IMG/VR virus record: IMGVR_UViG_3300037479_000183
Reading direction: 5' to 3' (one strand)
Source of the DNA: a virus
DNA length: 64,000 nt
Below the pieces are notes generated by a model, which saw only the letters and a list, made by a program, of their open reading frames with translations, did not search any database and had not been told where the DNA came from. The translations under genes were made by a program, and so were the position numbers. Positions 39,672-63,840 of the stretch are shown one piece after another (within the stretch, counting starts at the first letter, position 1; every line of letters begins with the position of its first letter).

Positions 39672-39680
39672 CTACTCAAA

Positions 39681-39706
39681 AATGAAAAATGGGGGCCGAA
39701 GCCCCC
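39681..39706 (-). terminator. Hairpin terminator with a cUUCGg tetraloop
   Basis: Minus strand GGGGGC-TTCG-GCCCCC followed by ATTTTTCATTTTT, just after the stop at 39719. Confidence 0.7.
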
Positions 39707-40405
39707 TTGCCGCCCGGCCTAGCCGGTGGCCCGCTTGATGGCTTTTAGGATGGCGGCCTGCTTTGCCTTCTTGCTCGCCTTCTTTGGCAAGCCTAGCGAA
39801 GCGGGCCAAAGGCCCGACTCCTTGGCCCGCCTGCCAATCCCCGCGACGGGGACGATAGGCGCGGCGGCCTGCTCCTTCCGCCTTCCGTCCTCAACTCCGG
39901 TCGTCCGAAGGTCGTCATCGCTGATGTCGTGTTCGGCGTTGAAGTCGGGCAACTCGCCCGTCGCCTGCGGCCCGCGCCCGGCCCGGCCCTTGGGGGCCGC
40001 CTCTAGCCACGGCTTCAACTCCGGCGCGAAGGTGTCCGTTGGCTTCGGCGCTCGCTTCACGACATAGGCAATCAACTCCTTCTCCTGCTTGGTTGTCATA
40101 GACCCCAGTAGGCGTCCCAACTATAAATAGTTTTACACAGCGCGCCCTTCGCCCCGGACGGTATATAAAGATTTGCCCTATATGAACTTTTGCCCGCCCG
40201 CCGCCCGGCCCGCATATATAAACTTATGCCCAGCCCGGCCTGCCGCAAGCCTTATATAGAAGGGCAAATCGGTTTTCCGGGCCGATATATAAAGCTTTGC
40301 CCAGCCCATCCGTCCGCCCGCCGTCAGACACTCGCCGCGCCTGTGTCAGACAAACATAAGACGCAGAAGAATTAAAGGGAAGAAGGAAAAGTCGGCTTAG
40401 ACTCG

Positions 40406-41824
40406 CTACTTTCGAGTCTTTTTCGACTTGCGGGCCTTGGGCTTGCCCTTCCCGCGCTTCGGCTTCTTTTGTGCTCGCACGGCTTCGCACTTGGCGCAAC
40501 AACACCAAAGCTTAGGCCGCCTGACGTGAAGCCCCAAGACGGCGAAGCATCCTTCCGGCTTCTGTGGGTTCGGCTTCGACGGAAGGCACCACTCCACGCC
40601 GGGGCAATGGGCCGCCTGATGCTTGCGGTTTCTCGCCCGCAACTTGGTGATGCTTCCCGGTTTCTCCCGTTCAAGCACCAACCAAGACGTCGGTATCTTC
40701 CGGTCGATTGGCGAGAGGACGCCGTGAAGGGTTCCGCGCTTCCCTTCCACGTCATACGCGATGCTCCCATCCTCTAGGTTGATGGCAGATACCCTTACTT
40801 GCCCCCAGAGGTCGCGTAGTCCCTTCGGGCCGGGCGAAGGCATCCGACTTAGGGCGGCGTCATAGACGATTTGCCTTCCCGTCTTGTTTGCGTTTCGTGC
40901 GCGGTGAAGGTTCGCCACAATCCACGCCGGAACGTCGGTAAGGCGCACCTTACGCAACTCCGCCGCTATCTTAGGGTGTCCAATCCTCTCAAGCCACCCT
41001 TCGACCTTCCGCCCCGTTTGGGTCGCATCGACGCCCGCAAGCACTCGCCGGAACCTCTTGATGCTTCCCGCCGCCGCCACCTTGGGGATGGGTTGGCCCG
41101 CAAGATAGGCGAGGGGTCGCCCTTGAGGGGCGGCGATTGCGTAGATGCGTCGGTCTGCTTGCTGGCCCGCCAAGCCTTCGGCCAAGGCCGCCGCTTCTTC
41201 GGCGTCAAAGTCGCCTTCATTGTCGGCTAGGATGGCTTTGGCCCTCTCGCCCGCCGCGTCTAGGCCGCGTTCCGCCAAGTAATCGACGGTTCCATCATCG
41301 GCACTAGCGTGTATGTTGGCGGTTTCTTCCCACTCCACGCCAAGCACTTTACCGCCGTTCATCGGCACGTCAGCCGAGCACCTGACGACACTTCGACGCC
41401 CGACGCTTACCGAATGGTCACAACCGGGGCGAGAGCATTTCGTCATATCGTCCTTACTCTCTAGCCGAGAGCAACGGCTAACGACAAACGACTCCGTGCT
41501 TCGCACTTCGCGGTTAGTGTTGATGCTAACCCACTTGCCATCTACTAGCTTCCCGCCCTTCTTGGCGTCCTTTACCGCCTTCGCGTAGATGGCGGCGAAA
41601 GGCACCGTTTCATCTTTCGGGATGCGGGCCTTGGCCTGAAGCACCGTCGCCTTCCAGCCTTCGGGGCTTGGCGTGATTATCACGCGGCCCTCTCGCGCAA
41701 GGGCGGCGGCGGTTCGCGGGAACCACTCGCCCGATTTCGCTTTCGACGTAGCCGCTACCAACACAGCCACTAGCAAGCACAGCGGCCCGAGTCCTGCTAG
41801 CGCGCTTCCGATTTCTGCCGACAT
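40406..41824 (-). CDS. 472-aa basic hypothetical protein with Cys/His clusters
   Basis: Long ORF with an AGGTG RBS, upstream TATA cluster and downstream TTTCCTTCTT tract. Confidence 0.7.
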   Translation of the reverse strand: MSAEIGSALAGLGPLCLLVAVLVAATSKAKSGEWFPRTAAALAREGRVIITPSPEGWKATVLQAKARIPKDETVPFAAIYAKAVKDAKKGGKLVDGKWVSINTNREVRSTESFVVSRCSRLESKDDMTKCSRPGCDHSVSVGRRSVVRCSADVPMNGGKVLGVEWEETANIHASADDGTVDYLAERGLDAAGERAKAILADNEGDFDAEEAAALAEGLAGQQADRRIYAIAAPQGRPLAYLAGQPIPKVAAAGSIKRFRRVLAGVDATQTGRKVEGWLERIGHPKIAAELRKVRLTDVPAWIVANLHRARNANKTGRQIVYDAALSRMPSPGPKGLRDLWGQVRVSAINLEDGSIAYDVEGKRGTLHGVLSPIDRKIPTSWLVLEREKPGSITKLRARNRKHQAAHCPGVEWCLPSKPNPQKPEGCFAVLGLHVRRPKLWCCCAKCEAVRAQKKPKRGKGKPKARKSKKTRK

Positions 41825-42084
41825 ACTTAGGCACCTCTGACGACGATAGGCGGTATGAGTATAAATAGATTTGCCCGCCGCCCGACGTAGGCCCGCAGGC
41901 CGCCTTCGCCCGCGCCGATATATAAACTTCTCCCCTATATAAACTTATGCCTGCCTGCCCGTCGTCCATTTGTGAGAACAACGCTTACGAATATAAACTT
42001 TTGCCCGTCCGACACTCGCCCGCGCTGTGTCCGACACCCATCAGCCAAGCCCGGCCTGCCTGTCAGACAAATGGCGGCCCGGCC

Positions 42085-42180
42085 TGTTATATAAACTTAT
42101 GCTCTTTACATTTGTAAAGTTATATTCAAATGGTTTTTATAAAAATGTTACAATATTAATTTTACAATTGTAAAGTTGGA
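42085..42180. promoter_or_regulatory. AT-rich island with palindromes; candidate replication origin or operator cluster
   Basis: TTTACATTTGTAAA 42105-42118, TTTTTATAAAAA 42134-42145 and TTTACAATTGTAAA 42161-42174, inside GC-rich flanks. Confidence 0.5.
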
Positions 42181-43475
42181 GCGTCAGACAATCGTCAGAA
42201 TAAGCGACTTTTATAATAATCACAGAATCCGACTAACTGCGTTCCGGGATTTTACGTCAAGACTTGACGATTCGGTATTTAAACCAATCGGCGGGCCTTT
42301 TCGTCGCCGCTAGAGATGTCTGACAGTGAAAATCGTTTTTCCACAGTCTTTCGACGGTCGCCGCCAAGGGCTAGGGCTTCCCCTAGTCAGGGGCGGGCCG
42401 CCCGTTAGTCGTCGGGCGCTTCAGGCCCATTCCCGTTAGGGGGCAAATGACTCTGACGGAAGCCTTCGGCTTCTGCTGAAACAGTCCCCCGAGGGAATCC
42501 GTAGCGATGCGGATTCGGCGCTTCCGAAAGAAAACGGATTCGTCGGAATCGACCTGAAGGTAAACAAAGGTATAGGCTGGAAATGAGCCAGCCTGCCATC
42601 CCGCAAGAGAGGTGCGAAATGTCGCCCAATCTTGGCCTTGACGATTCATTTTCGTGGCTAGAGGGATTACCAGAACGCCACCATATCCCCCGGAACGGAA
42701 AGGCCCGGCCTCGGACTCGGAGGCCGCAAGCGTTCCGTTCTGAGCAGTATACCATTTTGGGGATACTGCTGGCCCAATAGTAGAGAGGCCCGGCAATACT
42801 GCCCGGCCAATGGGCCTGATTGGGGGTCAGCGGAGCATTGACCGGCCCCGCCATCGCGCAAGCCCGTAAGGGCTGGCCGGCCAATTGTAAGAGCGCCCTA
42901 TCAGGACTCGGCGGCTAGGCAGGCCGGAAGCAGGCAACCGGGCCGAGCGTTTTTTGGTGGGCAGGCGTGGGTGTTTATAAAGGCTTAGACCCCACCCTAA
43001 CGGATTCGGAAGTAAACAGGGTATTTAAACTACCCGCCCGCCTAGGCACCTCGCCGGGCCTTGCCCAACAGGGCTTGCCCGGCCTTTCCTTTTATGGCAA
43101 GCATAAATGAAATCGTCGAGGCCATCCACGCGGCTTGCCGTCAGGCGGCCATACCGGAGGCCAAAGGCGGGCTTGGCGAGGACTTGGCATACCAAGTCTT
43201 GCTTCGCTTGCTTGGGGACTTCGGCAAAGCGGCCAAAAGGCGGTATGCCGCGATGGAGTGGGAGAGGCCGATTATCGTCGGCCTTGGGTTGGAAGCCTGT
43301 ATCGGTTGAAACCGGGCTCGGCTACTAACGGACACAGCACGGTGATTTACTCTTACCGTTAGGCGGCTAAGGCCGCCAAAAGTCGCAGACTTTATGCTTA
43401 ACGATGGGCCGGGTCGGTTCTTCGTTAAGAAAGTCCCCGGTGGGGACTTAGTGCCAAAACACGGAGCGTGCGAAA

Positions 43476-47739: not shown

Positions 47740-48387
47740 CTTATGAATAAACCACAGCGCAAACCTGCCGAGCCTTACGAAACGGATTTGGATGAAAAGA
47801 ATGAAGATGAGGATTACGAACCCGTTTAACCCAAAGTTGTAAAAAGAAGGGAAGGATATGCCGAATTGCCTTGCTTGTAGTGTGGAAGTCGAAGATGAAG
47901 GCCCGGCCCTAATTGGCCACCTTGAGGATAACCCGAAGTGCGCGGAGAAGTGGAGTTGGTGGTTGGTGGAGCTTGCCAATGATACGAGGGGGGCGTAGAT
48001 GAATCCGCTAGATGAAGCAAGGCGGCAGGAATTGGAAAGGCGCATCCTTACAAATGAGGCCGCCATTGAACGCCTTTGCGACGCTATTCGCATTACGAAA
48101 GACGAAACAAAGAAGAAGGAAATGTTCTGCCGAATTGGCACTATCGTAATCGCCAATCGCACGATTAAAGAGTTTTTGAGGAGCAAAGAGGATGAAGATG
48201 TGGCGTTGCCAATCTGACCACGAACATCCCACTTTTCAAGAAAAGCTTGATTGTGATGTCGCAACCGCCCGCTGGCTGGCCAAGTTTTACGGAGTCGATA
48301 CAACCGACTTGCCTGCCTGCGGCGGCGTAGCGTTGGTTGGCGCAAAGAAATCCAGTCAAGAGGAATGGATAGAGGAGCCGGAAGTCG

Positions 48388-48789
48388 ATGAGTCTGAGGA
48401 GTCTGATTGACATAGCAATCCGGGCCGCTTCGCGCAGTAATATGCGCCAGCGCCACGGCGCGGCCTGCCTTACCTATAAAGGTAGCATAGTTTATGGGTG
48501 GAATTGGCGAGCTGAAGGCAAGTTGAATCCGCACACGGCCCGGAAGTTGGGCTATCACGATTACTCCATTCACGCAGAAGTTGCCGCAGTTATGGAAGCT
48601 ATCGCTTGTGGTGAGCATCCGAAAGAGGTTTTGGTTATCCGCCGGATGCGAAGCGGCTTGTTCGGCCTCAGTCGCCCCTGCGGAGCCTGTATGGGGGTTT
48701 TGGAGTGGGCGGGAGTAAGGCGGGTTTATTATTCCAGCGGCCCGAATACGATTGAAGAAGTTCACCTAACTAGGGAAGTGAAGAAATGA
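48388..48789 (+). CDS. Zn-dependent cytidine/CMP deaminase-fold protein
   Basis: IHAE ... SRPCGAC. Confidence 0.9.
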   Translation: MSLRSLIDIAIRAASRSNMRQRHGAACLTYKGSIVYGWNWRAEGKLNPHTARKLGYHDYSIHAEVAAVMEAIACGEHPKEVLVIRRMRSGLFGLSRPCGACMGVLEWAGVRRVYYSSGPNTIEEVHLTREVKK

Positions 48790-51167
48790 CCACCCTTTGG
48801 GACGCCAAGATTGCGACTTTGCCAAAAGACGACGCGATTGAGATGATTAACTGTGTCCAAAGGACGCAAGAGATTTTTCACAACATCATCTACGAGAGGA
48901 TAAAGGGTTGGTTCCTTACCCATTCGGTCGATGACTTTGAGAACGGGCTTGATGGCGTGGAGATAGAACTAATTGTATATGTGATGGCTTGGCTTAAAGA
49001 CGCCTATTCAATGCCCGAAGAAATCGCGCGCCCTGTGTCCTATTGGTATGCGAAGAATTGGGTTGAAGGATTGCGCGGGAAGGTGGAAAGGTGAAGTGGA
49101 TAAGCGATAATGTTAGAACAGTTTTCCTCGACAGGGATGACAATCTAGTAGATGATGGGGCGTGTCGAGAAGGATTGCTTGGTAGTGAGAGGGAGAAGTG
49201 GTTTGCGCTGGAGATTGCTACCGTTAAGATGTTTGAGAAAGGCCCGCGAAAGGATGAAATGGGCGACCTTGCTCATAGATTTCTCTTTGAGCTTGTTCCG
49301 ATTGAATATTCGTTTGACGGCAGGATAGAGGGATGGGATGGCAGAAAGACTAAGCCGCAAAACACCCTTACCATTCCCCTTTCACCCGCAAGGCGGAATC
49401 CGCTTCAAATCTCCACAATTATTGGTATAGCAAGAACGGCCTTCTACCTAACTCGCTCGAAATCTAAGGATGTGGAGAAGGACGCAAAGCATATCCTTCG
49501 TGCTTGGAATATAAGGGATTTGCGGAAGAAAATGTGGAGGCTTGCGAGCATATGGGTGAGAAGCATTGAGGAGATTGGTTATGAGTCAAACATTTTCAAC
49601 AAACTTCAATTACCCATAGCTGAGTATGTCCTAACGGAAGCCTTCCCAGCGAAGGAACTGTTTGGCGAATACTCCAAAGGCAGGTTTGTTAATTGGAATG
49701 GTGTGGCAAGCAGGCCGCTGGCTAAGTTTGTGAAGGGCCGCTGGCCGAAATGGGAAAGGGTTGTAAAGGCCCTAGTTAATTACTGTGATTGCGGTTGCTG
49801 TAATGGGTGTAATGGAGATTTGGATGAGGGTGATTTTGAATGAGGCTAAAGGCCGCCATATTTGTAGATGGTGAAGTTGCTTGGAAAGACCCCGGAGAAG
49901 GGGGCTGTGGGGCGGTGTCCTGCCGGGGGCAGTTTGTCCCCCACCTTTTTGGTCGAGAACCGTATCGCCGCCGGAATGACTTTGGTTGGTGTATCAGGGA
50001 GCCGATTCGTAAAGTCATAAAGGAGAAAAAGAATTGGACTTTGGGAGTTTTGGCAGAGCCAAATACTTATAATTCATTTCACTTTGAACATCTCAATGCT
50101 ATCAACTCTGCGCTAGGCGGGGCGGCAAACGTCAAGCAAAGAGTAACCGATGGTAGATATGTTGGTTGGGATGGAGTTAGCAAAGGGAAAGTAACTGTCG
50201 AGGCGGAGATTGTATTTGCCCATCCTATTTCATATCTTCCAAATTACGTCGGCGGTATCATTGGATTTGTTCGAGATGTTCTACAGAGAAAGAATCAACC
50301 GTTTGGTTCTTTGGAGAATTATTCGCAGGGGGCGAGGGCGGGTATGGCCGACCCCCATTGTATGGAAATCGTTGGGTGTTGCGAGCCACCATATTTGGAA
50401 TGGCTCCTAACGCAAACGAATTGGAACCTCCCGCGCGGCGGCAGTTTTAAGGAGTGGTGGTCGGCAACAAAAGGAGTTTACTATCAATCTGACCGCCTCT
50501 TTCATCACGAATACGCCAAGCACGGTTTGCGAAAATCTGAATTTAGGGCGTGGGTGAGGGAGAAATATCCTGAGTGGTGGGAAAAGATGGCAAAGAGGAA
50601 CGGAGTTGAAGTCTAATGGGCAAATCACTATTTGATACTTGGAGAGAGAAGTGGCCCACGTTAGAGGAAGCTAAGGAAAGAATAGAGAAAGCGATTCAGA
50701 AAACTCAAGAAAAAGAGGAGATGGTAAAGAAAGCGAAAACGGTTACAACTACCGCCACGACAGCCGTTAAGCCTTCCTCAGTTGGCGATGCCAACCTTCA
50801 GGCGCTTGCGGAGTTGGTTGGAGAGGCGGCACTAGAACCCGACAAACCCGAAAGGAATACGCCGCAGGGTGTCAAGGATTTATATGATGCGGTGATGGAG
50901 TTTATCAAAACTGACGTTACTCCACCTATTACTGCCGATGCCAAAACGGTTCAAGACAATATGATTCTTGCTGAAATTGAAGGAGTTTGGGACATAGCCA
51001 ACTCAAAGAACAATGCGTGGGAGTATTTTACACAGCGCGTTGTGGAGGAGATAGACCAGATTCAGGAAATAAACATTACGTCGGGACTTCAATGTTCTTG
51101 GAATCATCTATACAGACGTTTGCGACAGCTTGCGATTGAAGCAGGAATGAGTGCGGTGAAAGTATGA
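48786..51167 (+). CDS. Four coupled hypothetical proteins (48786-49094, 49091-49843, 49840-50616, 50616-51167) leading into the ligase cluster
   Basis: Overlapping start/stop junctions; no recognisable family. Confidence 0.7.
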
Positions 51168-52102
51168 AGGTTACGTTGGGGACAGACCCGGAAGTATTTG
51201 TGAGCGATGGGGATAAGATTATCCCGGCGGATTGGGTCGTGCCGCCAAAGGACAAAGCGATGGCCCTGCCAAGCGGCGCGAAGATTTTCTTCGACGGCAT
51301 CGGATTGGAGCTAAACGTGGCCCCCACCGATACGCCCACCTCTTTCGCGCGCGCTGTGATGCTCGCAAAGAAGGAAGCCGAGGCTTACTTGGTAAAGAAG
51401 GGTTATAAGATGGTGGTTCTGCCCGCTGTTCCAATCGCTTTGGATACGATTAAGCGGGCGCATAAAGACGCACAGATTTTCGGATGCGACCCCGACCAAG
51501 TAGTGTATGAAATGGGCAAGCTTCGCAAGCCAACGGTTGACGCAAGGAATCATCCGTGGAGATATGCGGGTGGCCACATTCACGTCGGCCTGCCTAGCCT
51601 TTTGCCGGGCCTTCACTCTTGCGGCGAAAAGACAATCTACACCAATAGTTTCGACGGCTGGAAATGCTCGAAGTGTAAGGCGCAGGCGGATATGAGTGCG
51701 CTGATGCGAGTTATCGTAGCGCTTGACCTGCTTGGTGGTGAGAAGCTTCTTGCCGTTGAACGGGGCGTTCAGGATTCTTGGAGAAGGCGGAAGTATTACG
51801 GTGTTCCCGGCTCCTTCCGCTTCCAGCCGTGGGGGGTAGAGTGGCGCTTCCCAAGCAATCTGTGGCTAAGGAGCGAAGATGAGGCGAGGATGATGGGAGA
51901 GATGGCGATGAAGGCGGCTGAATTAAGCGCCGCCCTGCCCGCCTTGCTTAAGATTCCCGGGACGCGAGAGGCCATCAGCAACTTCAGAACTAGCCTAACC
52001 GATATGGCACTAACCGATAGAACATTTGATTGGGTTAGAGAGGAAGGAGAAAGGATATGTGCGGTATTGGCGGAATTGTCAAACTCGAAGGCGACGCAAT
52101 AG
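51164..52102 (+). CDS. phiEco32-like COOH-NH2 ligase (glutamine synthetase-fold amidoligase)
   Basis: LGTDPEVF, FFDGIGLELN, FGCDPD, RYAGGHIHVG, RRKYYGVPGSFRFQPWGVEWRFPSNLWL. Confidence 0.9.
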   Translation: MKVTLGTDPEVFVSDGDKIIPADWVVPPKDKAMALPSGAKIFFDGIGLELNVAPTDTPTSFARAVMLAKKEAEAYLVKKGYKMVVLPAVPIALDTIKRAHKDAQIFGCDPDQVVYEMGKLRKPTVDARNHPWRYAGGHIHVGLPSLLPGLHSCGEKTIYTNSFDGWKCSKCKAQADMSALMRVIVALDLLGGEKLLAVERGVQDSWRRRKYYGVPGSFRFQPWGVEWRFPSNLWLRSEDEARMMGEMAMKAAELSAALPALLKIPGTREAISNFRTSLTDMALTDRTFDWVREEGERICAVLAELSNSKATQ

Positions 52103-52950
52103 ACCCAAACCTATTGATTTCGCTACTAAATAAGCTAGATGGTAGCGGGCCAAAGGCGGTTGGTATTATTCTTGTTGGCAAAGAGGGCGGAGTGCTGACA
52201 ATCAAGACAACAAAAGGTTGGAGCGAGTGGGGGAAGGAGGAAAAGGAAAGCCTGAAGAACCGCGCTGGTGCGGCAAAAGCGGTGCTTGTTCACACACGCG
52301 CCCCAACTACCGGCCCCAACACCCTTGAAAACACTCATCCGTTTGAGGACTACGAAACCGGCCTATGGCTGGCCCACAATGGCGGGATTTTCAACCACGA
52401 TTCTATCTTCCAACTTCACGATTACAAAGGCCCTGTTGAGTGCGACTCGATGGCGGTTCTGTTGGAGTTTCTAACGCTTATAAAAGATAGCGGAACGGTT
52501 CAACACATCGCCGACTTAGAGGCAATAATGAGTGGTTGGTGGAATTGTTGGGCCTATCTTGCCAAGACCAACGACATCGTTCTGTTTACCAATATGGAAG
52601 GATTCAGGGCGGCGCAGAAGGATGGACATTTCATCTTTGCCAACCTCTCTTATGCTTTTGAGGGCGAACAACTACCAAGTGTGGTGAAGATTAATCTTGG
52701 ACAGGGAACGGACAAGCCGACCTTTACCTATTACCCCCTCGCCCCCGTGAAAACAGAAGTTGAAGAAGCGTTTAAGAAACTAATTGTTGCCGAAGATGAT
52801 AGACATTACCATCTTAAAATCCCTGAAGATGCTCAGAAAAGATTCCAAGGTTGGAAGTTGGCGGATAATGGCATCTTGATAGTGAGAAAGTATCAATGCG
52901 ATAAGGTAAAGAAAAATCGTATTTTGGGCATCATAAGAGGTGTGGGATGA
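52057..52950 (+). CDS. Class II (Ntn) glutamine amidotransferase 1
   Basis: N-terminal MCG, HTRAPT, NTHPF, HNG, CDS. Confidence 0.9.
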   Translation: MCGIGGIVKLEGDAIDPNLLISLLNKLDGSGPKAVGIILVGKEGGVLTIKTTKGWSEWGKEEKESLKNRAGAAKAVLVHTRAPTTGPNTLENTHPFEDYETGLWLAHNGGIFNHDSIFQLHDYKGPVECDSMAVLLEFLTLIKDSGTVQHIADLEAIMSGWWNCWAYLAKTNDIVLFTNMEGFRAAQKDGHFIFANLSYAFEGEQLPSVVKINLGQGTDKPTFTYYPLAPVKTEVEEAFKKLIVAEDDRHYHLKIPEDAQKRFQGWKLADNGILIVRKYQCDKVKKNRILGIIRGVG

Positions 52951-54356
52951 ATCCAGAGGAAATTGCGCGGCTAATGGATGCCGAGCCAAAACCAAAGCAT
53001 AACATCGCAGGCATCTACAACGAGTGGGATGCGGTGCCGGGCGGCCATACCCTTGACATTGGAGTTGAAATCGAAATCTACATTGGACGCAGAAGGGGAA
53101 GATTTTTTGCGCCATTCGGCGAGAATACGGATGACGGCTACATCCTCCACACTATTCTATCCAGATGTAAGGATAAGGTATTCCGCGACTATTATCCTCA
53201 TCAATTGGAAATCAGAGCTGGCCCCGGCAAAGCGCCGCAGGTAATAGAGGAGCTACAAACAACTCTTAAGGAAATTGGAGAGCTTCTTAGACCTTTCAAG
53301 TGTGGACTTCTATTTCGGTCGCGGTTTGGCGACTTCCAAACGTGCGGTCTTCACATTCACGCTGACGTATCCCTTTTTAATGACCGCCTAGATACTTTGG
53401 GAACGGCGATGGCCGTTTCCTACCTTCCCATCCTAATGAATTACGAGGCGCATCGGGATACAGAAACCAAACACTCAAGGATTGTAGATAATAAGTTTTC
53501 ACAGGCGGTCTATGATGTGGCCGATACGCTGGACAAATATCACGACCTTCACCTCAGCCCGGCGCGTGAAAATCCCGAAGGCCGCCATCGCTTAGTTAAA
53601 CCGATAACTTGGGAAACGCGCATATATGATACAGCGCCGCCGGAATCAATGTGGCACGGCATCTTGAAACATTCAGAAATCCTAAGCAGAAGCCTTCAAT
53701 TGGTGGAAAGCAATTCCGATTGTTTAAAGATTCCCGCCCGGCAAATCTTTGCGGCGGCGGTTAGATATAGAGGCAAGTTTTTCAACCAAGCCCCCGCTAT
53801 CTACAACTATCATAAGAAGATGTGGGCGTGGGTTGGGGCAGAGCCGGTGCCATCGGAGCAGGCAATCTGGACACGGTGGATACACTCGCTTGACATTTTC
53901 TCCAATGCTATTGTCCGAGAAATCAATGGGATTGATGAGCTAATTACCCACGTATTGCCATACAATCGCTGGCGGAAGCCGATGGCGGGCGATTGGGTCT
54001 TGAACGTGCTTACGCACGAATTGGGAAGATTCGATGAGATGGGAGAAGTAAGGTTACAAAATGGAGATATGCGTCCTTTTGACGTAAAGTTTTGGTATAA
54101 GGTGTTTACCTTTGAACCCGGACAGTATTATATAGCGCGGGTTATGAAGAGTGGGGTGGTGGAGTGGACACCACAAAACGTTAAAACGCCCGCAAAGGCA
54201 GATTTTGAAGGACTTGCTCCAAGCACAGAGCTAAAAATCATCAGCCAAGAGGTTCAGGACACGGTTCAGCTTGGCTTTATCGACCAAGTATCTAAGCCCG
54301 CCTTTGGGATTGTGAGGGCGGCTTATTCGGCGAATCCAAATCGTTGCCCGTTGTGA
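52947..54356 (+). CDS. Second GS-fold ligase (glutamate-cysteine ligase GCS2/amidoligase-like) with a C-terminal extension
   Basis: IGVEIEI, QLEIRAGP, TCGLHIHAD, TWETRIYD. Confidence 0.78.
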   Translation: MNPEEIARLMDAEPKPKHNIAGIYNEWDAVPGGHTLDIGVEIEIYIGRRRGRFFAPFGENTDDGYILHTILSRCKDKVFRDYYPHQLEIRAGPGKAPQVIEELQTTLKEIGELLRPFKCGLLFRSRFGDFQTCGLHIHADVSLFNDRLDTLGTAMAVSYLPILMNYEAHRDTETKHSRIVDNKFSQAVYDVADTLDKYHDLHLSPARENPEGRHRLVKPITWETRIYDTAPPESMWHGILKHSEILSRSLQLVESNSDCLKIPARQIFAAAVRYRGKFFNQAPAIYNYHKKMWAWVGAEPVPSEQAIWTRWIHSLDIFSNAIVREINGIDELITHVLPYNRWRKPMAGDWVLNVLTHELGRFDEMGEVRLQNGDMRPFDVKFWYKVFTFEPGQYYIARVMKSGVVEWTPQNVKTPAKADFEGLAPSTELKIISQEVQDTVQLGFIDQVSKPAFGIVRAAYSANPNRCPL

Positions 54357-54360
54357 GAAA

Positions 54361-55578
54361 ATGTGTGGTATAACTATATACGCAGGGAAGGAGCCTATAA
54401 CCTTCTATGAGGCGTTAAAGAGGACGCCTTATTGGAGAGGGGGCGATGGGCTAGGCGTGATGTGGCTTGAAGATGGAAAGATTCGCGTCCAGAAAAGCGC
54501 GGGCGCGGTTGAAAACTATCTTAAGGTTATCCTCGGAACAAGAGAAACCTTCTACTCAACTGATAAGTTTACCCTTCCCCCACTTGAAGCAACTAGCACG
54601 TTTTGGCTTATCCACAACCGAAAGGGAACGGTGGGTTCTTCCTATGATACAAAGAACAACCATCCCCACTTCCTTAAGGAGTATGGGGTGTGGGTGTTAC
54701 AGAATGGAACGGTTGTGGGTTTGGACTTCTATCGTGGCCTTCTAGAAATGGCAGGCGTGAAGTTTAACTCCGCCACGGATACAGAAGTGTTGGGCCACGC
54801 GGCTGTTCAACATATCATTCCAAAAATCCAAGAGATTTGTGGGAAAGCGGAAGATAAGTATAAGGCAGTAGAGGAGTTTCTGGAGCCATTCGCAAAAGCA
54901 ACGGCTGGCTTCGGCGTGTTTGTTGTTGTTGACCCCGAGAATAAACAAGTCCACGTTTTGAAGGATGATGATAGAACGCTGTGGCTGTCAAGGGATAATA
55001 CAGGGGGCGTGTGGCTCACATCGGAGATAGTCGTGCCGATTCAAAATGGAAAACTTTTTTCCACAGAAATCTACAATGGCTACATCAGACTTGACCTCAA
55101 CCAAGCAGACTTTACAGAAACAGCATATTACTATGCTCAAAGGTGTGAGGATTTGTGGAAGGTAATTCGCCAAGCAAAGCCCGTGGAGATGACCCACACT
55201 TCTTGCGACGCCTGCCGAGAAGAAAGATTGGTTTTCAAATGTGCGGAGTTTGATATTTGTTGGGAATGTATTGCCGATAACAAAAACAAGCCGGATTTTG
55301 GTGTAAGTTTTCGGGGGACAAGCGAGTGGGATGGGGGGAAGTGGAGCGACCCCACTCTAGCATACCACAAGACCCACTCGAAAGATGGCGCAACTCCATC
55401 TATCATTGATTTCAGCGGAGCAAAGAAGTTTACAGATTACAAAACGGGGAAGCCCGACGACCCCATTATCTCTCCTGTTAAAGAATTGGATATTTGGACA
55501 AGAAGTGTGGAGCAGATGGCGAACAAGATGGAGTTACTAATTCAGCGCGGTTGCGAAGAGGAAAGGGATTGTGAATGA
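54361..55578 (+). CDS. Class II (Ntn) glutamine amidotransferase 2 with a C-terminal Zn-ribbon extension
   Basis: MCG, WRGGDGLG, HNRKGT, NNHPH, QNGT, TDTE; later CDAC..C..CWEC. Confidence 0.88.
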   Translation: MCGITIYAGKEPITFYEALKRTPYWRGGDGLGVMWLEDGKIRVQKSAGAVENYLKVILGTRETFYSTDKFTLPPLEATSTFWLIHNRKGTVGSSYDTKNNHPHFLKEYGVWVLQNGTVVGLDFYRGLLEMAGVKFNSATDTEVLGHAAVQHIIPKIQEICGKAEDKYKAVEEFLEPFAKATAGFGVFVVVDPENKQVHVLKDDDRTLWLSRDNTGGVWLTSEIVVPIQNGKLFSTEIYNGYIRLDLNQADFTETAYYYAQRCEDLWKVIRQAKPVEMTHTSCDACREERLVFKCAEFDICWECIADNKNKPDFGVSFRGTSEWDGGKWSDPTLAYHKTHSKDGATPSIIDFSGAKKFTDYKTGKPDDPIISPVKELDIWTRSVEQMANKMELLIQRGCEEERDCE

Positions 55579-56279
55579 ATAAGAACTGTCGTATAGCGGC
55601 AGAAGCGGCTGTGGGCAACCTTCCGCCTTCCTGCGCCATCAACATTGAAGCGCATAGGATAACCGGCTGCGCCCCGGCCTGCTATGAGGATTGTTTGGGC
55701 TATGACGAAACAGCGGGAATGTGCGCCAATTCCGCACTAGTGTATCCTATTCAAATCTTCAAACCCGTTTTTCTTGAACCAAAGAAGAGCCGCCAATGGC
55801 TCGCTATGCTTGACCACCCCGCCCTAACTATGATGCTAGATACGATGCTAAATGTGGTATTTGAAAGTGAAGGTTATGCCTGTATGGACTGTTCACTATT
55901 TCAGGAGAGCAAATGCCAACTGCTTGCTTGGGTAAGGGAGCATGCTTATGGTTATATTGAAAAACTTATCCCGCTTCGTGAACAACAGCCGCCGCCTGTG
56001 AAACAACTTACCGATAATAACATTCGGCACCTAAGCATAATTGTGGAGAAGATTCGCGCCTATGAATCATTCATTAGTAAAGGCAAAGAAGTCGGCCCAA
56101 CGCCCGAAAAGATTTCCGACTTCATCAAACTTGCTCCGGTTCCGGGGCCGGGCGGGCCTGCTGGCGGGGGCGGATTTGAAGTGGCAGAAGAAGATGAAGG
56201 TGGCGATGTGTGCGATGAGTGCGGCCACGATTGGGAGGATGTAGTAGAGGGATGCGGCCATTGTGTTAATGAGCATTGA
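55575..56279 (+). CDS. Cys-rich protein with a Gly/Pro linker and acidic Zn-ribbon tail
   Basis: Multiple Cys clusters; GPGGPAGGGGFEVAEEDEGGDVCDEC..CGHC. Confidence 0.65.
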   Translation: MNKNCRIAAEAAVGNLPPSCAINIEAHRITGCAPACYEDCLGYDETAGMCANSALVYPIQIFKPVFLEPKKSRQWLAMLDHPALTMMLDTMLNVVFESEGYACMDCSLFQESKCQLLAWVREHAYGYIEKLIPLREQQPPPVKQLTDNNIRHLSIIVEKIRAYESFISKGKEVGPTPEKISDFIKLAPVPGPGGPAGGGGFEVAEEDEGGDVCDECGHDWEDVVEGCGHCVNEH

Positions 56280-56397
56280 GGGTGAAGGATGAAGCTCTGT
56301 AAGGAACATACGATATCACAGCGCTGGCGGGCGTGGCAGGTCGATATTGTTTCGCACGCTGAGTGTGCGGCGTGTGAAGATGAAAGGGGTTGGTAAG

Positions 56398-57282
56398 ATG
56401 ATAATTCTAGAACAGCGAGAGGAAACTCTTGGGAGTTTTAAGCGGCATTTGTGGGAAGCGGCGAATAGGATTGCGCCCGAAGATTGTTTCCATTCAAGTG
56501 AAGTGGAGATGGAGGATGGATGGATTTATCTTCACGATAGCAAAACGCCAGCAAAGGCGCTTATCCTGACTCCCAGCAAAGCGTCTCGCCCTCACACTCC
56601 TCTAACTCTTGGGGCGCGGAGTTGCTATCCGCTTCTCAATCCTCCGCGCTCCTCCTTAACAAGTAAACCGGAGTGGCAAAAGATTCTGCGAGATTTGGAA
56701 ATCCCAACGCCAACCTATTATATCCACACCACAAAACCGGGGATTGCGAAGCCTGTTTATGGGCAGGGTGGTAAGGGAATCAAGAAGGGAAAAGGTGTCT
56801 ACACTCAAGATGGCATTTTTAACCCGTTCACAGAGAAGGGGATTGGGTGGGATATTAGGGTAGTGATGTTTATGGGAGGGGCGATTGGCGCGATGCTTCG
56901 CATCAACCCATTCGACTTCCGCAGCAACATCCACCAAGGCGGCCATCCCGTAACCTTTTGGGAAGGAAAGACAAATCCAATTGTCAATCACGAAATCCGC
57001 GATGTGTATCCGCAAATCGTAAAGTGGCTCGGAATGACCGCCCCCGACAAGAGTTGGTTTGTGTGGGGAAAGAAGTTAACGGAAGCAACCCGCTGTGCTT
57101 ACTTTGGGATGGATATTATCTTCGACGAAGCTCGCAAGCCTTTTGTAATCGACATCAATCCCACCGCCGGGCAGGACGCCAACGAAAGAAACATCATCAG
57201 AGTAGCAAGAAGTTTAAGACTACTAAGAGATAAAGAGTATATAAACAAAGAGGCTAAGATAAAAGTAGAAGCACTAACGTAA
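56398..57282 (+). CDS. RimK-like ATP-grasp ligase
   Basis: IAKPVYGQGGKGI, WDIRVVM, FRSNIHQGG, YFGMDII, VIDINPTAG. Confidence 0.88.
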   Translation: MIILEQREETLGSFKRHLWEAANRIAPEDCFHSSEVEMEDGWIYLHDSKTPAKALILTPSKASRPHTPLTLGARSCYPLLNPPRSSLTSKPEWQKILRDLEIPTPTYYIHTTKPGIAKPVYGQGGKGIKKGKGVYTQDGIFNPFTEKGIGWDIRVVMFMGGAIGAMLRINPFDFRSNIHQGGHPVTFWEGKTNPIVNHEIRDVYPQIVKWLGMTAPDKSWFVWGKKLTEATRCAYFGMDIIFDEARKPFVIDINPTAGQDANERNIIRVARSLRLLRDKEYINKEAKIKVEALT

Positions 57283-57958
57283 TAGTAATCACTTCGCTGT
57301 GTTCCGTTAGGTGATAGAATGATTTGCTATCTAACAAAAGGAAAGTTTGGGGGCGCTCTTAAGCTGATGATGTGGAATAGATGGGGAAGAAGGGAGGAGG
57401 AAGTGGCGATTCGCTGTCCGTGGGGACACGTTACGGAGATGCCGTGGCTATCAGATGGTATCAAACTTCAAGTTTTGGAAGGAGCGTCAAAGGGGTTTGA
57501 GTGTCAAGGATACACCATCAATCCTGTTAGCGGAAGGCAGACTAAATGCCCATTTAAAGGCGACCTCATTCTAATAGGGTGGAAGGAATGAAAACATTCA
57601 TTATCAAAGCGATTGACAAATACGATGAAAGGGCGCTAACTTGGGATTGTCCAGAGACCGGTGGGTTGGGATTTCACTGTCCCTTCAAACATTGGAATAC
57701 GATGCTTAAACTCCAAATACATTTAAAACTACTCGATGCTCCCTATCCAGATGCCGATGGAGTGTTCCCATTTGTTTTGGGCTGCGCTTATCCAGCCTGT
57801 AAGTGGCAAGATAAGGAGGTTGTTCTTCTTGGATATAAGGAGTGGAAGAAAAAACTAGGTAGGGTGGCCAACAAACCTAAATGGGGAGGATGGGGATTGG
57901 TCTTTGATGACTATACAAACCTTTAAATACCACCCCGCCAATCAGATGTTGATGCTCT

Positions 57959-58735
57959 GTGTTAGCAAAACCAACCAACCGTTTTCAGACCGACCTTAGT
58001 GAATACTCTGCGGGCCTTTCGGACTTAATGAGGCAGTTGCCTCCGCAAAGACGATTTTATTGGTATGCTACCGACGCTTTCTCTTGTGAAAGAAAGATGG
58101 CAATTGAGTGGCTTGCCCTTGCTCCGCAAAAGGCATACTCCGAAGAATCGGGCGTGGCGTTTGCGCAAGGAGATGCGCTGGAAGAAGAGTTTATCACACG
58201 ACTGATTTCGGCTGGGCTGATTATTGCCCGCCAAGTGGGAGTGTTTATTCCCTCTCACGGAATCTCAGGAAGGGTGGATGCCATCGTTTTCCGGCCCGAA
58301 CCAGAGATTTTGGAAATCAAAACGGTTAAAGGTTATCCCTTCAAGAAGCTAATGGAAGCGCCGTGGGATGCGGGATATGATGCCATCTTCGCTTATATGA
58401 AGCGAAATTGGATGGACAAGATTCTTATCAACTACACTCAACTTCAACTTTATTTGTTTGCCTTAGAGCAGGAAAAGGGATTTCTGATTTATTTCGACAA
58501 AAATACAGGCAAGCGATTGGATTTAGAAATAAGGCGCGACGATACTGCGGTTGCCAAAGCCTTGACTTGGTTTAGCCAAACGAAAGGCGCAATAGATAAA
58601 GCCCGCCTAGGCTTGGAGCAAGGCAGGCCAGCCGATGAAGTGTTGCCACCAACTCTAGATAAGAAAAAATTCCCATGCGCGTGGGAAGCCGACCGCTGTG
58701 CGTTTTGGGAGTTTTGTTACGGGGAAAAGAAATAG
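57959..58735 (+). CDS. Cas4-like PD-(D/E)XK exonuclease
   Basis: CERK..G...E..GRVDAI..LEIKT..QLQLY..C..CxFxxFC (four Fe-S-type Cys). Confidence 0.85.
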   Translation: MLAKPTNRFQTDLSEYSAGLSDLMRQLPPQRRFYWYATDAFSCERKMAIEWLALAPQKAYSEESGVAFAQGDALEEEFITRLISAGLIIARQVGVFIPSHGISGRVDAIVFRPEPEILEIKTVKGYPFKKLMEAPWDAGYDAIFAYMKRNWMDKILINYTQLQLYLFALEQEKGFLIYFDKNTGKRLDLEIRRDDTAVAKALTWFSQTKGAIDKARLGLEQGRPADEVLPPTLDKKKFPCAWEADRCAFWEFCYGEKK

Positions 58736-59501: not shown

Positions 59502-60464
59502 ATGAGATTTGTAATGCCTGAATATCCCCATATCCGCCGAATTGGAGATAGGGAGAATGAGGGAGTTTTGCGGTGCGATGCGTTGGCAATTGAGGAGAAG
59601 GTAGACGGTGCGAACTTTAGGTTTGCGCGCTTTGATGACGACCAAGAAGCGCCCCGCATTATCTTTGGAAGTCGTGAGCGGGTGCTTGGCCCCTTCCGGG
59701 GAAATGTATGGGTGAATAATAGTAGGCAATTCAAGAAGGTTATAGACTTTCTTTCTTCACGCTTAAAAGTTGAAGATTTGAATCCTTCTTTTGTTTACTT
59801 CGGGGAAGACCTCTCCCACCCACATACGGTCAAATACGATTCTGCGCCGCAGTTTGTAGGCTTTGATATAATGGCCATCGCACCCGAAGGGAGTGTTGTG
59901 GAGAGGAAAGGCGGGGCGGCATTTCTATCTACCGACGCTAAGCGCAAGGAGTTTGAAAGGCTCAGCCTAGATTTCATCGAACCTTGGAGTGTGTTGAAGA
60001 ATCCTCAGCCAGAAGAGTTGGAGGCGTTTCTAAAGCAAACAAGGTATCAAACTAAAATGCCAGAAGGCATTGTGATTAAAAACTATCAACGCCTTAATCG
60101 ATGGGGCAGACCGCTATTCGCCAAGATTGTAAATGAAGACTTTAAAGAAGTTAACAAAGCAGTTTGGCGTGGCATAAAGCGCGATAGGAATTGTGAAATG
60201 GAAATAGCAGAGGCATTTGTAACACAGCCGCGCGTAAGAAAAATCGCATTGAAGATGGTTGAGCAAGGAGATGCTGCGGCGTTGGAGATGGCGATGATGC
60301 CAACCCTCTATGCGAATGTAGTTTATAACGTGCTTCAAGAGGAGATTCATACGATTGCCGATAAGTGGCCGAGTATCGACTTCGGCCAGCTTAATAGAGA
60401 AGTCGCCAAGCAAACCGCCCGCCATTTGGAGGAGTTGATAGCGGAAAATGCTAAAGGAGAATAA
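59502..60464 (+). CDS. ATP-dependent RNA ligase, Rnl2-like
   Basis: Motif I EEKVDGANF, FGE, FVGFDI, motif IV EGIVIK, motif V FAK. Confidence 0.88.
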   Translation: MRFVMPEYPHIRRIGDRENEGVLRCDALAIEEKVDGANFRFARFDDDQEAPRIIFGSRERVLGPFRGNVWVNNSRQFKKVIDFLSSRLKVEDLNPSFVYFGEDLSHPHTVKYDSAPQFVGFDIMAIAPEGSVVERKGGAAFLSTDAKRKEFERLSLDFIEPWSVLKNPQPEELEAFLKQTRYQTKMPEGIVIKNYQRLNRWGRPLFAKIVNEDFKEVNKAVWRGIKRDRNCEMEIAEAFVTQPRVRKIALKMVEQGDAAALEMAMMPTLYANVVYNVLQEEIHTIADKWPSIDFGQLNREVAKQTARHLEELIAENAKGE

Positions 60465-60708
60465 CGCCCGCGCCGCTGTGAATCGCCTCTTGTGGGATGA
60501 GGCGTTTGTGGGGAAAAGTATAATCATCTTTTATTTGGATAGAAATCTTTTTGGCGAAGCTAAGCTTAAACCCCTTCCCCTCCACCACGTTGAGGGGGTC
60601 GGAAAACTTTTCCTTTATCTAACGGGCGATGAAGAATTTGGGATGTTGCCACTTCACCGAATACGAACAATTACTGTGGACGGAGATATGGTATGGCAGC
60701 GCGTATGA
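60448..60708 (+). CDS. MJ1316/DUF504-like RNA-repair domain protein
   Basis: IIFYLDR ... LPLHRIRTITVDGDMVWQR matches the family's P-HRI..I...G...W-R signature; overlaps the ligase stop. Confidence 0.75.
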   Translation: MLKENNARAAVNRLLWDEAFVGKSIIIFYLDRNLFGEAKLKPLPLHHVEGVGKLFLYLTGDEEFGMLPLHRIRTITVDGDMVWQRV

Positions 60709-61601: not shown

Positions 61602-63397
61602 ATGACTGACAAGTGCCCCAAGTGCGGCGGAAGAGGAAAGGATTTCGTGTGCTGTTCAGACCCTACTTGCCCCCCCAACGATTGTGATGATTGTGGAGCG
61701 ACCGGCAAGGCCCGAGTCGGTGGCGGAGAGGCTGGTTCAGATGGCAAAAATGAGGAAACCCAAACGAATAAGAAAGCACAAGAGACGGCTACCGAGCAGG
61801 CAGACACTCGCGGACGAGTTATGGATGACAGTAGGAGATTGACCCCCGCGAACCCCGGCCCTGGCGAGAAGCCGCTGACGGAGGAGGAGTTGCGAGGGGT
61901 AGAACGAGGATGGCCTCTAGCAGAGAGAGCCGCCCGCGAGATTCGCTCCCTCCGCACCCGCTTGGAGCAGGCCGAGGCCCGAGTGAAGGAATTACTGACG
62001 GTGCTATCTCGCTCTACAAAAAGCGAGCAGATGGAGATGGTTCTCAGGGAGCGCGACCAAGCCCGCGCTGAGGTGGAGAGGTTCAAGAGCATCTCAGATA
62101 GTTGGATGTTGACGGCCACCGAGAGATTGCGCCGCGCCGAGGAGTTGCAGGCTCAGGTCAAGGTCTTGCGCGAGGCGCTGCGCCCATTGCTGCCCGAATG
62201 TGAGAGGTGCCCAGAGAAGAACCGGAAACCTGCTTGGTGGTTGAGCGAAGTAGCATACGAAGACGAGCCGCTGTGGACCTGCGAAGAACACCGTCTTAGG
62301 GGGTCCGGCGCTGCTGGTAGGATGCCATCTACGGAGGAAACCGCGCAAAAGACAGGATGGGCCGCGCTCGCCAAGTCAGGCAAGGAGGCGAAGCGATGAA
62401 GTGCTACTCCGAATACTGCAAGGGTTCGAGAGAGATGGAACTCATGTGGGTCTGCGAGCATTGCGGTGAGCGCAAAGACTCGACTGGCACTCTTGCTCCA
62501 GGTTACAGGGATTACTCAGGCAAGGAGGATGAGACGAAATGACCCACTACTGCCCGGCCTGCGAACTGACCTTCGATGAGGGTCCATCATCCTACCAATA
62601 CATCGACCATCTTGAGTGGCATTTGCGTCAGGATAGCGGGACGGTGATGCCCGGCCAGTTCCCCGGTCAAAGCACGACCGGCCCAGGACCGCAGTTCATC
62701 CCGACGGGATACCAGCAGGGCAACGAAGGCGCCGCCGCCAAGCCCGCGCCCCGTGAGGAGAGGCGTGAGGGGTGCGTGAGATGCGCCCTCCTCGGTCGAG
62801 AGGGACGCTTACCTGGGGGCACTCATCTCCCAGCGCACACCTGCGGAGGCACCGGGAAGCGAGCCGGGGGTGGGGAGTGATGCTAGATGTCCGGCCAGTG
62901 GTCGACACCAAGCAGACCGACCTCTATGGCAAGCGCATCTTTCTTGTCCCCCATGCCCTCGGATGGGCCATCTATCGGGTCGAGCGCCGCGCTGAAGGAA
63001 AGTAGGTGAAGGATGAATCATATCTGTTACGGCCCTGAAGGGAGACACGATTTCAAATGTCCGGGACATCCAAATGGCCACTATCTTATAATGCCATGTT
63101 GCGAGGAGCATCACAAATATATGGTTGCCGAGATGCGTTGTTGGAATTGCGCCCGTGGATACTTTGATTGCGTGAATAGCGAGCATGACTGTTGTCCCAA
63201 GTGTAAGCATGATACATTGTAAACTATGTGAGGGAACCGGGCCCGGCCTACGAATCCGTTGCCTGCTTTGTAACACCATAATTCAAAGCAAATACAGACA
63301 TGACTATGTAAAGTGTAATTGTGGACAGGCAGCCATTGATGGCGGCGACGCCTATACTCGTATTATAGGAGATAAAAGATGGTTGGAAATGTTATAG
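61602..63397 (+). CDS. Run of small hypothetical and Zn-finger ORFs (61602-62399 coiled coil, 62539-62880, 63013-63222, about 63209-63397)
   Basis: Coupled ORFs; IRCLLC..HDYVKCNCGQAAIDGG is a recurrent phage Zn-binding family. Confidence 0.6.
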
Positions 63398-63840
63398 ATA
63401 GATTTGATGGAGAACATCGGTTTCTTTCTAACTTCTACTCACACTTTCTGGGCTGGCTAGGCAGGCTTTGGCCCTCAGCCGAACACGCTTATCAATGGAG
63501 TAAGACGGACAACTTTCAATGGAAAGAACGAATCCGCCTAGCCGCCTCGCCCGGCCAGGCCAAGATATTAGGCAGGCAGGCCCCGCTGCGGCCGGGCTTT
63601 CACGAAATTAAAGTGGGAATAATGGAGGATATCATCTTTGCTAAGTTTGCCGATAAAGATTTGGCAAAGAAGTTGATTAACACAGGCGGGGCGTGGTTGA
63701 TTGAGGGCAACGATTGGGGCGATACGTTTTGGGGGGCGGTGAGGGTTGATGGGAAATGGCGCGGACAGAATCATCTCGGTAAGACGTTAATGTTAGTGCG
63801 GAATTGGTTGATGGAAAATGAGAACAGCAGATTGGTATAG
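63379..63840 (+). CDS. NADAR (YbiA-like) hydrolase
   Basis: FLSNFY, WPSAEHAYQ..K, AKF..LINTG..LIE..DTFWG..GQNHLGKTLMLVR. Confidence 0.93.
   Translation: MVGNVIDRFDGEHRFLSNFYSHFLGWLGRLWPSAEHAYQWSKTDNFQWKERIRLAASPGQAKILGRQAPLRPGFHEIKVGIMEDIIFAKFADKDLAKKLINTGGAWLIEGNDWGDTFWGAVRVDGKWRGQNHLGKTLMLVRNWLMENENSRLV

Follow-up and report, generated by a model that had tools for sequence, protein, structure and literature searches.

A two-glutaminase, cyclotransferase-free subtype of the phage amidoligase cassette in an uncultured tailed virus with a probably archaeal host

The stretch of DNA analysed here (hereafter the window), 64 kb of a 69-kb contig from a freshwater metagenome filed as IMG/VR record IMGVR_UViG_3300037479_000183, belongs to a tailed virus: it encodes a large terminase and an HK97-type capsid protein, and its structural module runs on the minus strand. 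Six co-directional genes at 51164-57282 (Table 1) make up a cassette in which two ligases of the glutamine synthetase fold (GS-fold), Lig1 and Lig2, alternate with two class-II glutamine amidotransferases (GATases) of the N-terminal nucleophile (Ntn) type, GAT1 and GAT2, and are followed by a Cys-rich protein, P0005, and a RimK-like ATP-grasp ligase, P0006. All six open reading frames (ORFs) are present on the plus strand where an earlier reading of the bare letters (the original prediction) had placed them, and the identities that it proposed proved right, including the GCS2-like call for Lig2, which no family library recognises directly. From the first gene to the sixth the intergenic distances are -46, -4, +4, -4 and +100 nucleotides (nt), the start of GAT1 overlapping the end of Lig1 by 46 nt; the six genes are translationally coupled, and the block forms the centre of a packed string of 17 genes (47858-57926). 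The ORF of P0006 is open from a TTG at 56347, which would give 311 amino acids (aa), and its likely start is either the called ATG at 56380 or an alternative ATG at 56398. As judged from sequence, one coupled string encodes three predicted, intact ATP-dependent carboxylate-amine ligases (two GS-fold, one ATP-grasp) and two predicted, intact Ntn amidotransferases, and the residues checked in the ligases and in the GATases are all in place.

Table 1. Predicted genes of the window that are discussed in the text, in order of position
Feature	Coordinates	Strand	Remarks
Archaeal-type LonB protease (Lon_C, LonB_AAA-LID)	23264-25534	-	756 aa; inside head-morphogenesis module
Upstream part of packed string: small ORFs, deaminase-fold gene, four orphans	47858-51167	+	overlaps of 1-26 nt throughout
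Cytidine/dCMP-deaminase-fold protein	48388-48789	+	133 aa; dCMP_cyt_deam_1 E 1.6e-10; weak MafB19-deaminase match
Four upstream orphans	48786-49094, 49091-49843, 49840-50616, 50616-51167	+	pathway membership candidate only
Lig1 (P0001), phiEco32-type COOH-NH2 ligase (GS-fold carboxylate-amine ligase)	51164-52102	+	312 aa
GAT1 (P0002), stand-alone class-II (Ntn) glutamine amidotransferase	52057-52950	+	297 aa
Lig2 (P0003), second GS-fold ligase, GCS2/YbdK-like	52947-54356	+	469 aa
GAT2 (P0004), second class-II (Ntn) glutamine amidotransferase, zinc ribbon	54361-55578	+	405 aa
P0005, Cys-rich orphan protein	55575-56279	+	234 aa, 13 Cys
P0006, RimK-like ATP-grasp ligase	56380-57282	+	ORF open from TTG 56347
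Two small orphan genes ending packed string	57319-57926	+	90 and 115 aa
Cas4-like PD-(D/E)XK nuclease	57959-58735	+	after cassette, behind TTTAAATA element at 57922
Rnl2-type RNA ligase	59502-60464	+	PF09414 E 1e-14
MJ1316 RNA cyclic-end recognition domain gene	60448-60708	+	E 7e-13
NADAR-domain protein	63379-63840	+	PF08719 E 1.8e-21; phrog_1017 E 6e-39

Lig1 is assigned by its match to the PHROG family phrog_3815, 'COOH.NH2 ligase' (E 6e-34), its score against the Pfam model COOH-NH2_lig (PF14395; E 3.5e-5, 23.6 bits) lying slightly below the 25-bit cut-off. When aligned with six orthologues (four metagenomic proteins, gp19 of phage tf and a Zobellviridae protein), G6, D8, P9, E10, E49, N51, R133, G136, G137, H138, H140, R208, E226 and R228 are invariant, and the GS-fold motif set D8/E10, E49, H138/H140, R208 and E226/R228 is kept; a Cys-containing insert at about residues 146-175 is specific to the window. 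Relatives of Lig1 occur in 288 deposited phage records, and its likeness to Lig2 is remote only.

Lig2, on the other hand, has no match of its own in Pfam (E 0.07 only), PHROGs, NCBIfam or the PDB, and its relatives number only 21 among 1.8 billion representatives. These relatives do match GCS2 (8), Amidoligase_2 (5) and COOH-NH2_lig (4), and share with one another the motifs G-E-x-E, Q-x-E-I-R, G-x-H-x-H, R and T-x-E-x-R-x-x-D, the invariant positions of Lig2 being G39, E41, E43, D81, Y83, Q86, E88, G134, H136, H138, R170, H176, T221, E223, R225 and D228. The GS-fold set E41/E43, E88, H136/H138, R170 and E223/R225 is kept in Lig2 and aligns with YbdK, so that the catalytic Glu, His and Arg residues of the fold are retained in both ligases. 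The AlphaFold model is confident over residues 30-255 or so, which comprise the catalytic domain, and poor over 260-469, a lineage-specific C-terminal domain of no confident fold. Structure comparison of the model gave Z 13.3 for the YbdK/GCS2 structure 1tt4, Z 11 for glutamate-cysteine ligases and Z 10 for PafA/Dop, and Foldseek matched it to glutamine synthetases at E 2e-6; an hhalign comparison of Lig2 with a profile of 58 canonical phage Amidoligase_2 proteins gave a probability of 81% (E 1e-5, 189 columns). Because its relatives match these families and its fold agrees with them, Lig2 is predicted to be a GCS2/YbdK-like ligase, the counterpart of the phage Amidoligase_2. Lig2 has in common with the GS-fold superfamily (YbdK/GCS2, glutamine synthetase, glutamate-cysteine ligase, PafA/Dop) the fold and the metal- and ATP-binding Glu, His and Arg motifs, but the identity amounts to 8-15% only and no family model reaches its cut-off; unlike for PafA/Dop, no Pup-like partner was found for Lig2.

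Both GATases open with the residues MCG and exceed the GATase_6 cut-off of 27 bits, GAT1 with 31.6 and GAT2 with 30.2 bits; GAT1 also matches GATase_4 (the Pfam model 'Glutamine amidotransferases class-II') and GAT2 the GlmS N-terminal model over residues 1-202 (E 3.6e-16). In all 12 viral GATases aligned, the nucleophile C2, R30, G31, H79, R81, N92, H94, P95, N108, G109 and D130 (numbering of GAT1) are invariant; the conserved Arg and Asp presumably hold the glutamine, and we take Asn-Gly to be the oxyanion hole. In GAT2 the glutaminase domain is followed by a CxxC...CxxC zinc ribbon, the cysteines of which are kept in its orthologues, and by an acidic C-terminus. A profile of the 12 viral GATases recovers GlmS (E 4e-25), PurF (2e-16) and AsnB (2e-8), whereas 1te5, the one YafJ-like stand-alone structure listed, follows at E 8e-4 and EgtC has no entry among the matches of the profile. 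For this reason GAT1 and GAT2 look like true glutaminase domains of the GlmS/PurF type, with the corresponding activity predicted. Like GlmS, PurF and AsnB, they have the glutaminase domain with its N-terminal Cys and all of the glutamine-binding residues; in those enzymes, however, a synthase domain is fused, while GAT1 and GAT2 stand alone with short C-terminal parts, and a separately encoded GS-fold ligase would presumably serve as the acceptor enzyme. We know of no characterised example of a stand-alone class-II amidotransferase paired with a separate GS-fold ligase. A maximum-likelihood tree built from 77 GATase domains places P0002 in a GAT1 clade (support 90/86) and P0004 in a GAT2 clade (98/89). 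Since these two well-supported, separate clades hold the same set of viruses, GAT1 and GAT2 are, as far as the tree indicates, old paralogues inherited together and not a recent tandem duplication. Long branches lead to the GATases of the window, and the grouping of P0002 with the L056 sequence is flagged as a possible long-branch effect; the GATase pair of L040 looks like an independent second doubling. A search for fused genes brought up a 736-aa candidate (L025, 5737-7947), which was rejected as a GATase-ligase: it combines prohead protease (Peptidase_S78) and capsid (Phage_capsid_4) domains and adjoins a Lig1 gene.

P0006 matches Pfam RimK (25.2 bits, cut-off 21) and ATP-grasp_3, and its motifs DIR...DFRSN.H.GG and D...D.N align to the E. 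coli RimK structures. Matches to rimK_fam (E 2.4e-8) and rimK_rel_E_lig (E 1.7e-7) lie far below the curated NCBIfam cut-offs (TIGR00768, 33.7 bits against 143; MptN, 23.5 against 350), and there are weak matches to GSH-S_ATP and glutathione synthase. A single other relative, with 51% identity, was found in 5.8 billion proteins. The family searches agree with the original prediction gene by gene, with Lig1 in phrog_3815, both GATases in GATase_6, P0006 in Pfam RimK and Lig2 reached by way of the GCS2, Amidoligase_2 and COOH-NH2_lig matches of its relatives. P0005, preceding P0006, has a Gly/Pro linker, an acidic stretch and a C-terminal CxxC-x10-CxxC and ends in ...VNEH; it has no match in Pfam, PHROG, NCBIfam or PADLOC, no convincing relative in the Atlas and a model of its own with a pLDDT of 0.49. 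Related cassettes have a 218-aa protein in the corresponding position, with which P0005 shares no homology; a CxxC motif and an acidic tail also close the product of the gene that precedes the ATP-grasp in the nearest relative. P0005 is possibly an accessory or substrate protein of the cassette. Between P0005 and P0006 lies a 35-aa zinc-knuckle ORF (56289-56396, plus strand; CxxH...CxxC, ending in ...EDERGW) with a good GGTGA site and a stop that abuts the ATG at 56398, but L093, the closest relative, lacks it, so that this mini-ORF may be spurious.

The computational prediction of a phiEco32/LUZ24-type amidoligase cassette in phages reportedly goes back to Iyer, Abhiman, Burroughs and Aravind in 2009 (Mol Biosyst). 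That study is cited in PMC4431377, PMC7824862 and PMC11706807, and neither an experimental characterisation of the cassette nor an identical operon with a known product came up in our literature searches. A nitrogen-metabolism role has been proposed, speculatively, for the cassette of phage ZRK32 (PMC10945688), and Vyasavirus, a putative Poseidoniales virus, carries an amidoligase and a GATase for which secondary metabolites or superinfection immunity have been suggested, equally speculatively (PMC11706807). In bacterial phages the canonical cassette is found as one block, in tf (gp19-gp25) and in a Zobellviridae genome, composed of a COOH-NH2 ligase, an Amidoligase_2 (PF12224), a class-II GATase, an ATP-grasp and a gamma-glutamyl cyclotransferase. 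In order to place the window among such loci, the best 80 of 133 IMG/VR loci encoding a Lig1 relative were surveyed, their ORFs being typed with our own profiles within 8-kb flanks; the window and three further loci enter into the counts. In 53 of the surveyed loci a single GATase is accompanied by a second GS-like ligase and an ATP-grasp, 25 of these also having the cyclotransferase, and seven loci have two GATases. The phiEco32-type neighbourhoods that the original prediction had attributed to phages are seen in tf, in the Zobellviridae phage and in these 53 loci. The window shares with phiEco32, LUZ24 and tf the COOH-NH2 ligase (tf gp19 is orthologous to Lig1), the second GS-like ligase, the MCG class-II GATase and the ATP-grasp, all in one co-directional early block of a tailed virus. 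It differs from them in several respects: its two GATases belong to distinct old lineages where the phages have one, a gamma-glutamyl cyclotransferase is missing, its ATP-grasp is RimK-like and of another lineage than the R2K_2/tf gp24 type, it has an extra Cys-rich protein and a Lig2 with a 210-aa extra domain, and its host is probably archaeal. Accordingly, on sequence comparison the cassette of the window is best described as a divergent subtype of the phiEco32/LUZ24-type amidoligase cassette, and no new kind of system.

The novelty lies in the subtype, in which ligase, GATase, ligase and GATase follow one another and a cyclotransferase is lacking. The order Lig1-GAT1-Lig2-GAT2, with one-to-one orthology at 22-31% identity, recurs in L001-L003 (contigs of the Joint Genome Institute), L006/L014 and L009/L013 (IMG/VR), L010 (contig C4 of a Thermoplasmatales metagenome-assembled genome, MAG), L011 (a Logan contig that begins at GAT1) and a second Logan contig, without DNA. 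An ATP-grasp stands beside the core in every full-length relative, and within the 8-kb flanks these contigs have nothing else in common with the window. The comparison indicates that the four-gene core is passed on as a whole, being conserved in at least five other uncultured viral lineages, one of them represented by the Thermoplasmatales-binned contig. Synteny in uncultured viral contigs lends some support to what had been proposed, but the novelty claimed for the doubled architecture was overstated, two GS-fold ligases with an ATP-grasp being the standard phage cassette and the double-GATase form a variant that recurs in several uncultured viruses. Likewise, novelty among archaeal viruses holds for the second GATase, as a variant, and not for the association of amidoligase and GATase, which is already present in the putative Poseidoniales virus (PMC11706807). 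A gamma-glutamyl cyclotransferase is present in 30 of the 68 single-GATase loci and in none of the seven doubled-GATase loci, and no match to it (AIG2/GGCT) was found in the scanned proteins of the window; this contrast is suggestive only, since the doubled loci represent about four or five independent lineages.

The doubled-GATase cassettes of the relatives resemble that of the window in the zinc ribbon of GAT2, the nearby ATP-grasp and the lack of a cyclotransferase. On the other hand, their GAT1 is longer (460-476 aa) and their Lig2 shorter (326-335 aa), and they carry an R2K_2/TTL-like ATP-grasp orthologous to that of bacterial phages together with conserved proteins of 218 and 144 aa, none of which the window has. 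In three of them Lig1 is preceded, at a distance of about 1-3 kb, by a divergent third paralogue of the COOH-NH2 ligase, 311-324 aa long (L001, 4895-5869; L006, 2289-3224; L010, 2302-3249), which was detected solely with the Lig1 profile built in this analysis. Other genes seen in or near these cassettes include a dual-specificity phosphatase-like gene and a Metallophos_2 phosphoesterase gene between Lig2 and GAT2 in L010 (9642-10895), MJ1316 at 0.7 kb after the cassette in L011 and RlaP at 4.6 kb after it in L006.

In the window, the enzyme part of the packed string begins with a deaminase-fold gene, the size of which suits a cytidine or nucleic-acid deaminase over a T4-type dCMP deaminase. 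The four orphans between this gene and Lig1 have no matches in the Pfam, PHROG, NCBIfam, PADLOC and Atlas libraries; P0030 and P0031, like P0005, have no informative match in the same libraries, and an apparent paralogy between P0030 and P0031 was discarded as weak (E 0.003). Acidic C-termini are found in the products of 48192-48410 (...EEPEVDESEESD), 49091-49843 (...GDLDEGDFE) and 54361-55578 (...CEEERDCE), all on the plus strand, as scattered acidic tails with no tag motif common to the proteins of the string. No TATA-like element was detected on the plus strand over 43.0-57.9 kb, and the TTTAAATA element at 57922 stands ahead of the next gene after the string. Among the genes beyond it, a NADAR-domain gene is a possible counter-defence candidate on the basis of its family; NADAR-family enzymes reverse ADP-ribosylation. 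The PADLOC defence-system models gave no matches for the 10 proteins submitted.

The host is likely archaeal, because of the type of the LonB protease, the TTTAWATA elements, the MJ1316 gene and the presence of a Thermoplasmatales-binned contig among the relatives of the cassette. TTTAWATA occurs 25 times in the window against 5.3 expected, and 20 of the 25 elements fall at 35888-42283, nearly all on the minus strand of a GC-rich stretch of small genes. No close relative of LonB was found among genome contigs or deposited phages, and searches for the host with the terminase and LonB returned remote bacterial-phage matches only. Contig C4 (L010) is binned with the Thermoplasmatales MAG, in which the Terminase_6N matches lie on other contigs, and a check of the viral status of C4 gave no HK97 capsid match.

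Regarding the chemistry, we hypothesize that each GS-fold ligase would activate a carboxylate with ATP through an acyl-phosphate and that the neighbouring glutaminase would pass to it ammonia taken from glutamine, which would amount to two steps from carboxylate to carboxamide, while the RimK-like ATP-grasp would add an amino acid, most likely glutamate, by a peptide-type bond. The putative product would be a short, amidated compound with amide linkages of the Glu/Gln type, either free or on a protein carboxylate, for which a conserved host protein and the virus's own proteins with many Cys or an acidic tail are candidates; the acceptor would not be a nucleic acid. It would be made in the non-structural phase of infection, with host takeover, counter-defence and exclusion as candidate roles. 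To this scheme of two glutamine-dependent carboxamide-forming steps and an amino-acid addition by the ATP-grasp we give roughly even chances. The original prediction had further assigned each ligase a glutaminase of its own; the conserved one-to-one order, the intact GATase residues and the GlmS/PurF-like profile speak for that pairing, but no fusion of such partners was found among long phage GATases, and cassettes with a single GATase are the commonest.

Several observations weigh against the scheme. A single GATase for two GS-like ligases is the form of most cassettes, which makes strict pairing no general rule, and a search of phage GATases 484-727 aa long turned up no GATase-ligase fusion. 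A gamma-glutamyl amide would fit the glutamine-binding residues equally well, so that a hydrolase role is possible. A prediction of the Lig1-GAT1 complex from 5-row alignments scored 0.00, which is no evidence either way, and the model of P0006 from a 3-row alignment (pLDDT 40) is unusable; nor was orthology detected between P0006 and tf gp24, the Zobellviridae ATP-grasp or those of other related cassettes. The only sequencing run that contains the stretch is of DNA.

The possible hydrolase role leads to the main alternative, a different division of labour: the GS-fold ligases would join a gamma-glutamyl group and an amine, and later the Ntn enzymes would remove or transfer this group, the second Ntn enzyme replacing the cyclotransferase. 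EgtA and EgtC in ergothioneine synthesis and GmaS and MgsA in methylamine use are precedents for such building and trimming, with which the lack of a cyclotransferase in the doubled loci, the additional GATase_4 match of GAT1 and the conserved Arg and Asp would agree, the latter two residues binding the alpha-amino-acid end common to glutamine and gamma-glutamyl amides. Nevertheless, we consider this course unlikely: the GATase profile performs 20 orders of magnitude better on true amidotransferases than on 1te5 and finds no EgtC structure, the doubled loci are few and related, which makes for weak statistics, and a cyclotransferase could sit outside the 8-kb flanks. The genes may also be viewed as auxiliary metabolic genes, forming a viral gamma-glutamyl cycle from a glutamate-cysteine ligase-like enzyme and a glutathione-synthetase-like ATP-grasp, which would yield glutathione-like peptides or glutamine-derived amino acids and boost the nitrogen or thiol metabolism of the host. 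Readings of this kind are those proposed for phage ZRK32 (PMC10945688) and Vyasavirus (PMC11706807), and the GCS2 matches of the Lig2 relatives, the fold similarity of Lig2 to glutamate-cysteine ligases and the weak GSH-S_ATP and glutathione-synthase matches of P0006 point the same way. However, the matches to glutathione enzymes are all at superfamily level, far under the family cut-offs, such a cycle offers no role for two glutaminases, and the proteins are extremely divergent and virus-restricted, with 2-21 relatives in billions, unlike recent acquisitions from a host; we regard a metabolic role of this type as quite improbable.

The surroundings of the cassette might also suggest a modification of nucleic acids, an amide-linked group being placed on a nucleotide, on viral DNA or on tRNA with the help of the upstream deaminase or of nearby tRNA and RNA-repair genes. 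In fact, the deaminase-fold gene belongs to the same packed string, three tRNA genes lie upstream and the Rnl2 and MJ1316 genes downstream, and genes of RNA-repair type recur near the cassettes of relatives, namely MJ1316 (L011), RlaP (L006) and the phosphoesterases inside the L010 cassette. Against this, none of the partners that a DNA modification would call on, be it a thymidylate-synthase-like (ThyA-like) hydroxymethylase, a kinase for nucleotides or 5-hydroxymethyldeoxyuridine DNA, a pyrophosphorylase-type transferase or a DNA glycosylase, was found with Pfam, PHROG and NCBIfam among the 24 neighbouring ORFs scanned (43.4-63.9 kb); the TATA-like element at 57922 sets the RNA-repair genes apart from the string, and unrelated functions do cluster in viral early regions. 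To our knowledge, no GS-fold or RimK-type ligase acts on nucleic acids, which also counts against this proposal, and its chances appear slim. It is conceivable, finally, that the six genes are adjacent but independent accessory genes without a common pathway, as related cassettes have, in the places of the ATP-grasp and the Cys-rich gene, genes that are not their orthologues. Such an arrangement is highly unlikely because synteny is conserved: orthologous copies of the four core genes stand in the same order in viruses that are very distant and have nothing else in common within the 8-kb flanks, and the core always comes with an ATP-grasp in the full-length relatives.

Another putative scheme would give a protein the central part, with P0005 (55575-56279) or the product of 49091-49843 as carrier or target, the carboxyl end of which would be extended by the RimK-like ligase and amidated by the two ligase-glutaminase pairs, in a distinct pathway of archaeal tailed viruses. 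As in the RimK and LysX-LysW systems, an ATP-grasp resembling the RimK family adjoins a small-to-medium Cys-rich protein with acidic segments; yet P0006 scores far under the cut-offs of the RimK/LysX families, and the window has no LysW-like 54-aa zinc-ribbon carrier ending in an EDWGE motif. We hold this for a long shot, which, if true, would represent a new viral post-translational tagging or carrier-protein chemistry, in its logic akin to LysW/LysX and to pupylation.

Few conserved enzyme modules of tailed phages are as widespread as the amidoligase cassette predicted in 2009. The value of the copy in the window is comparative, since an uncultured copy alone makes the question of the cassette no easier to test. 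It suggests that the module extends to very divergent, probably archaeal viruses, and the stable subtype with two glutaminases and no cyclotransferase may provide a cleaner biochemical hypothesis, that of two amidations, together with a comparison set for work on cultured phages.

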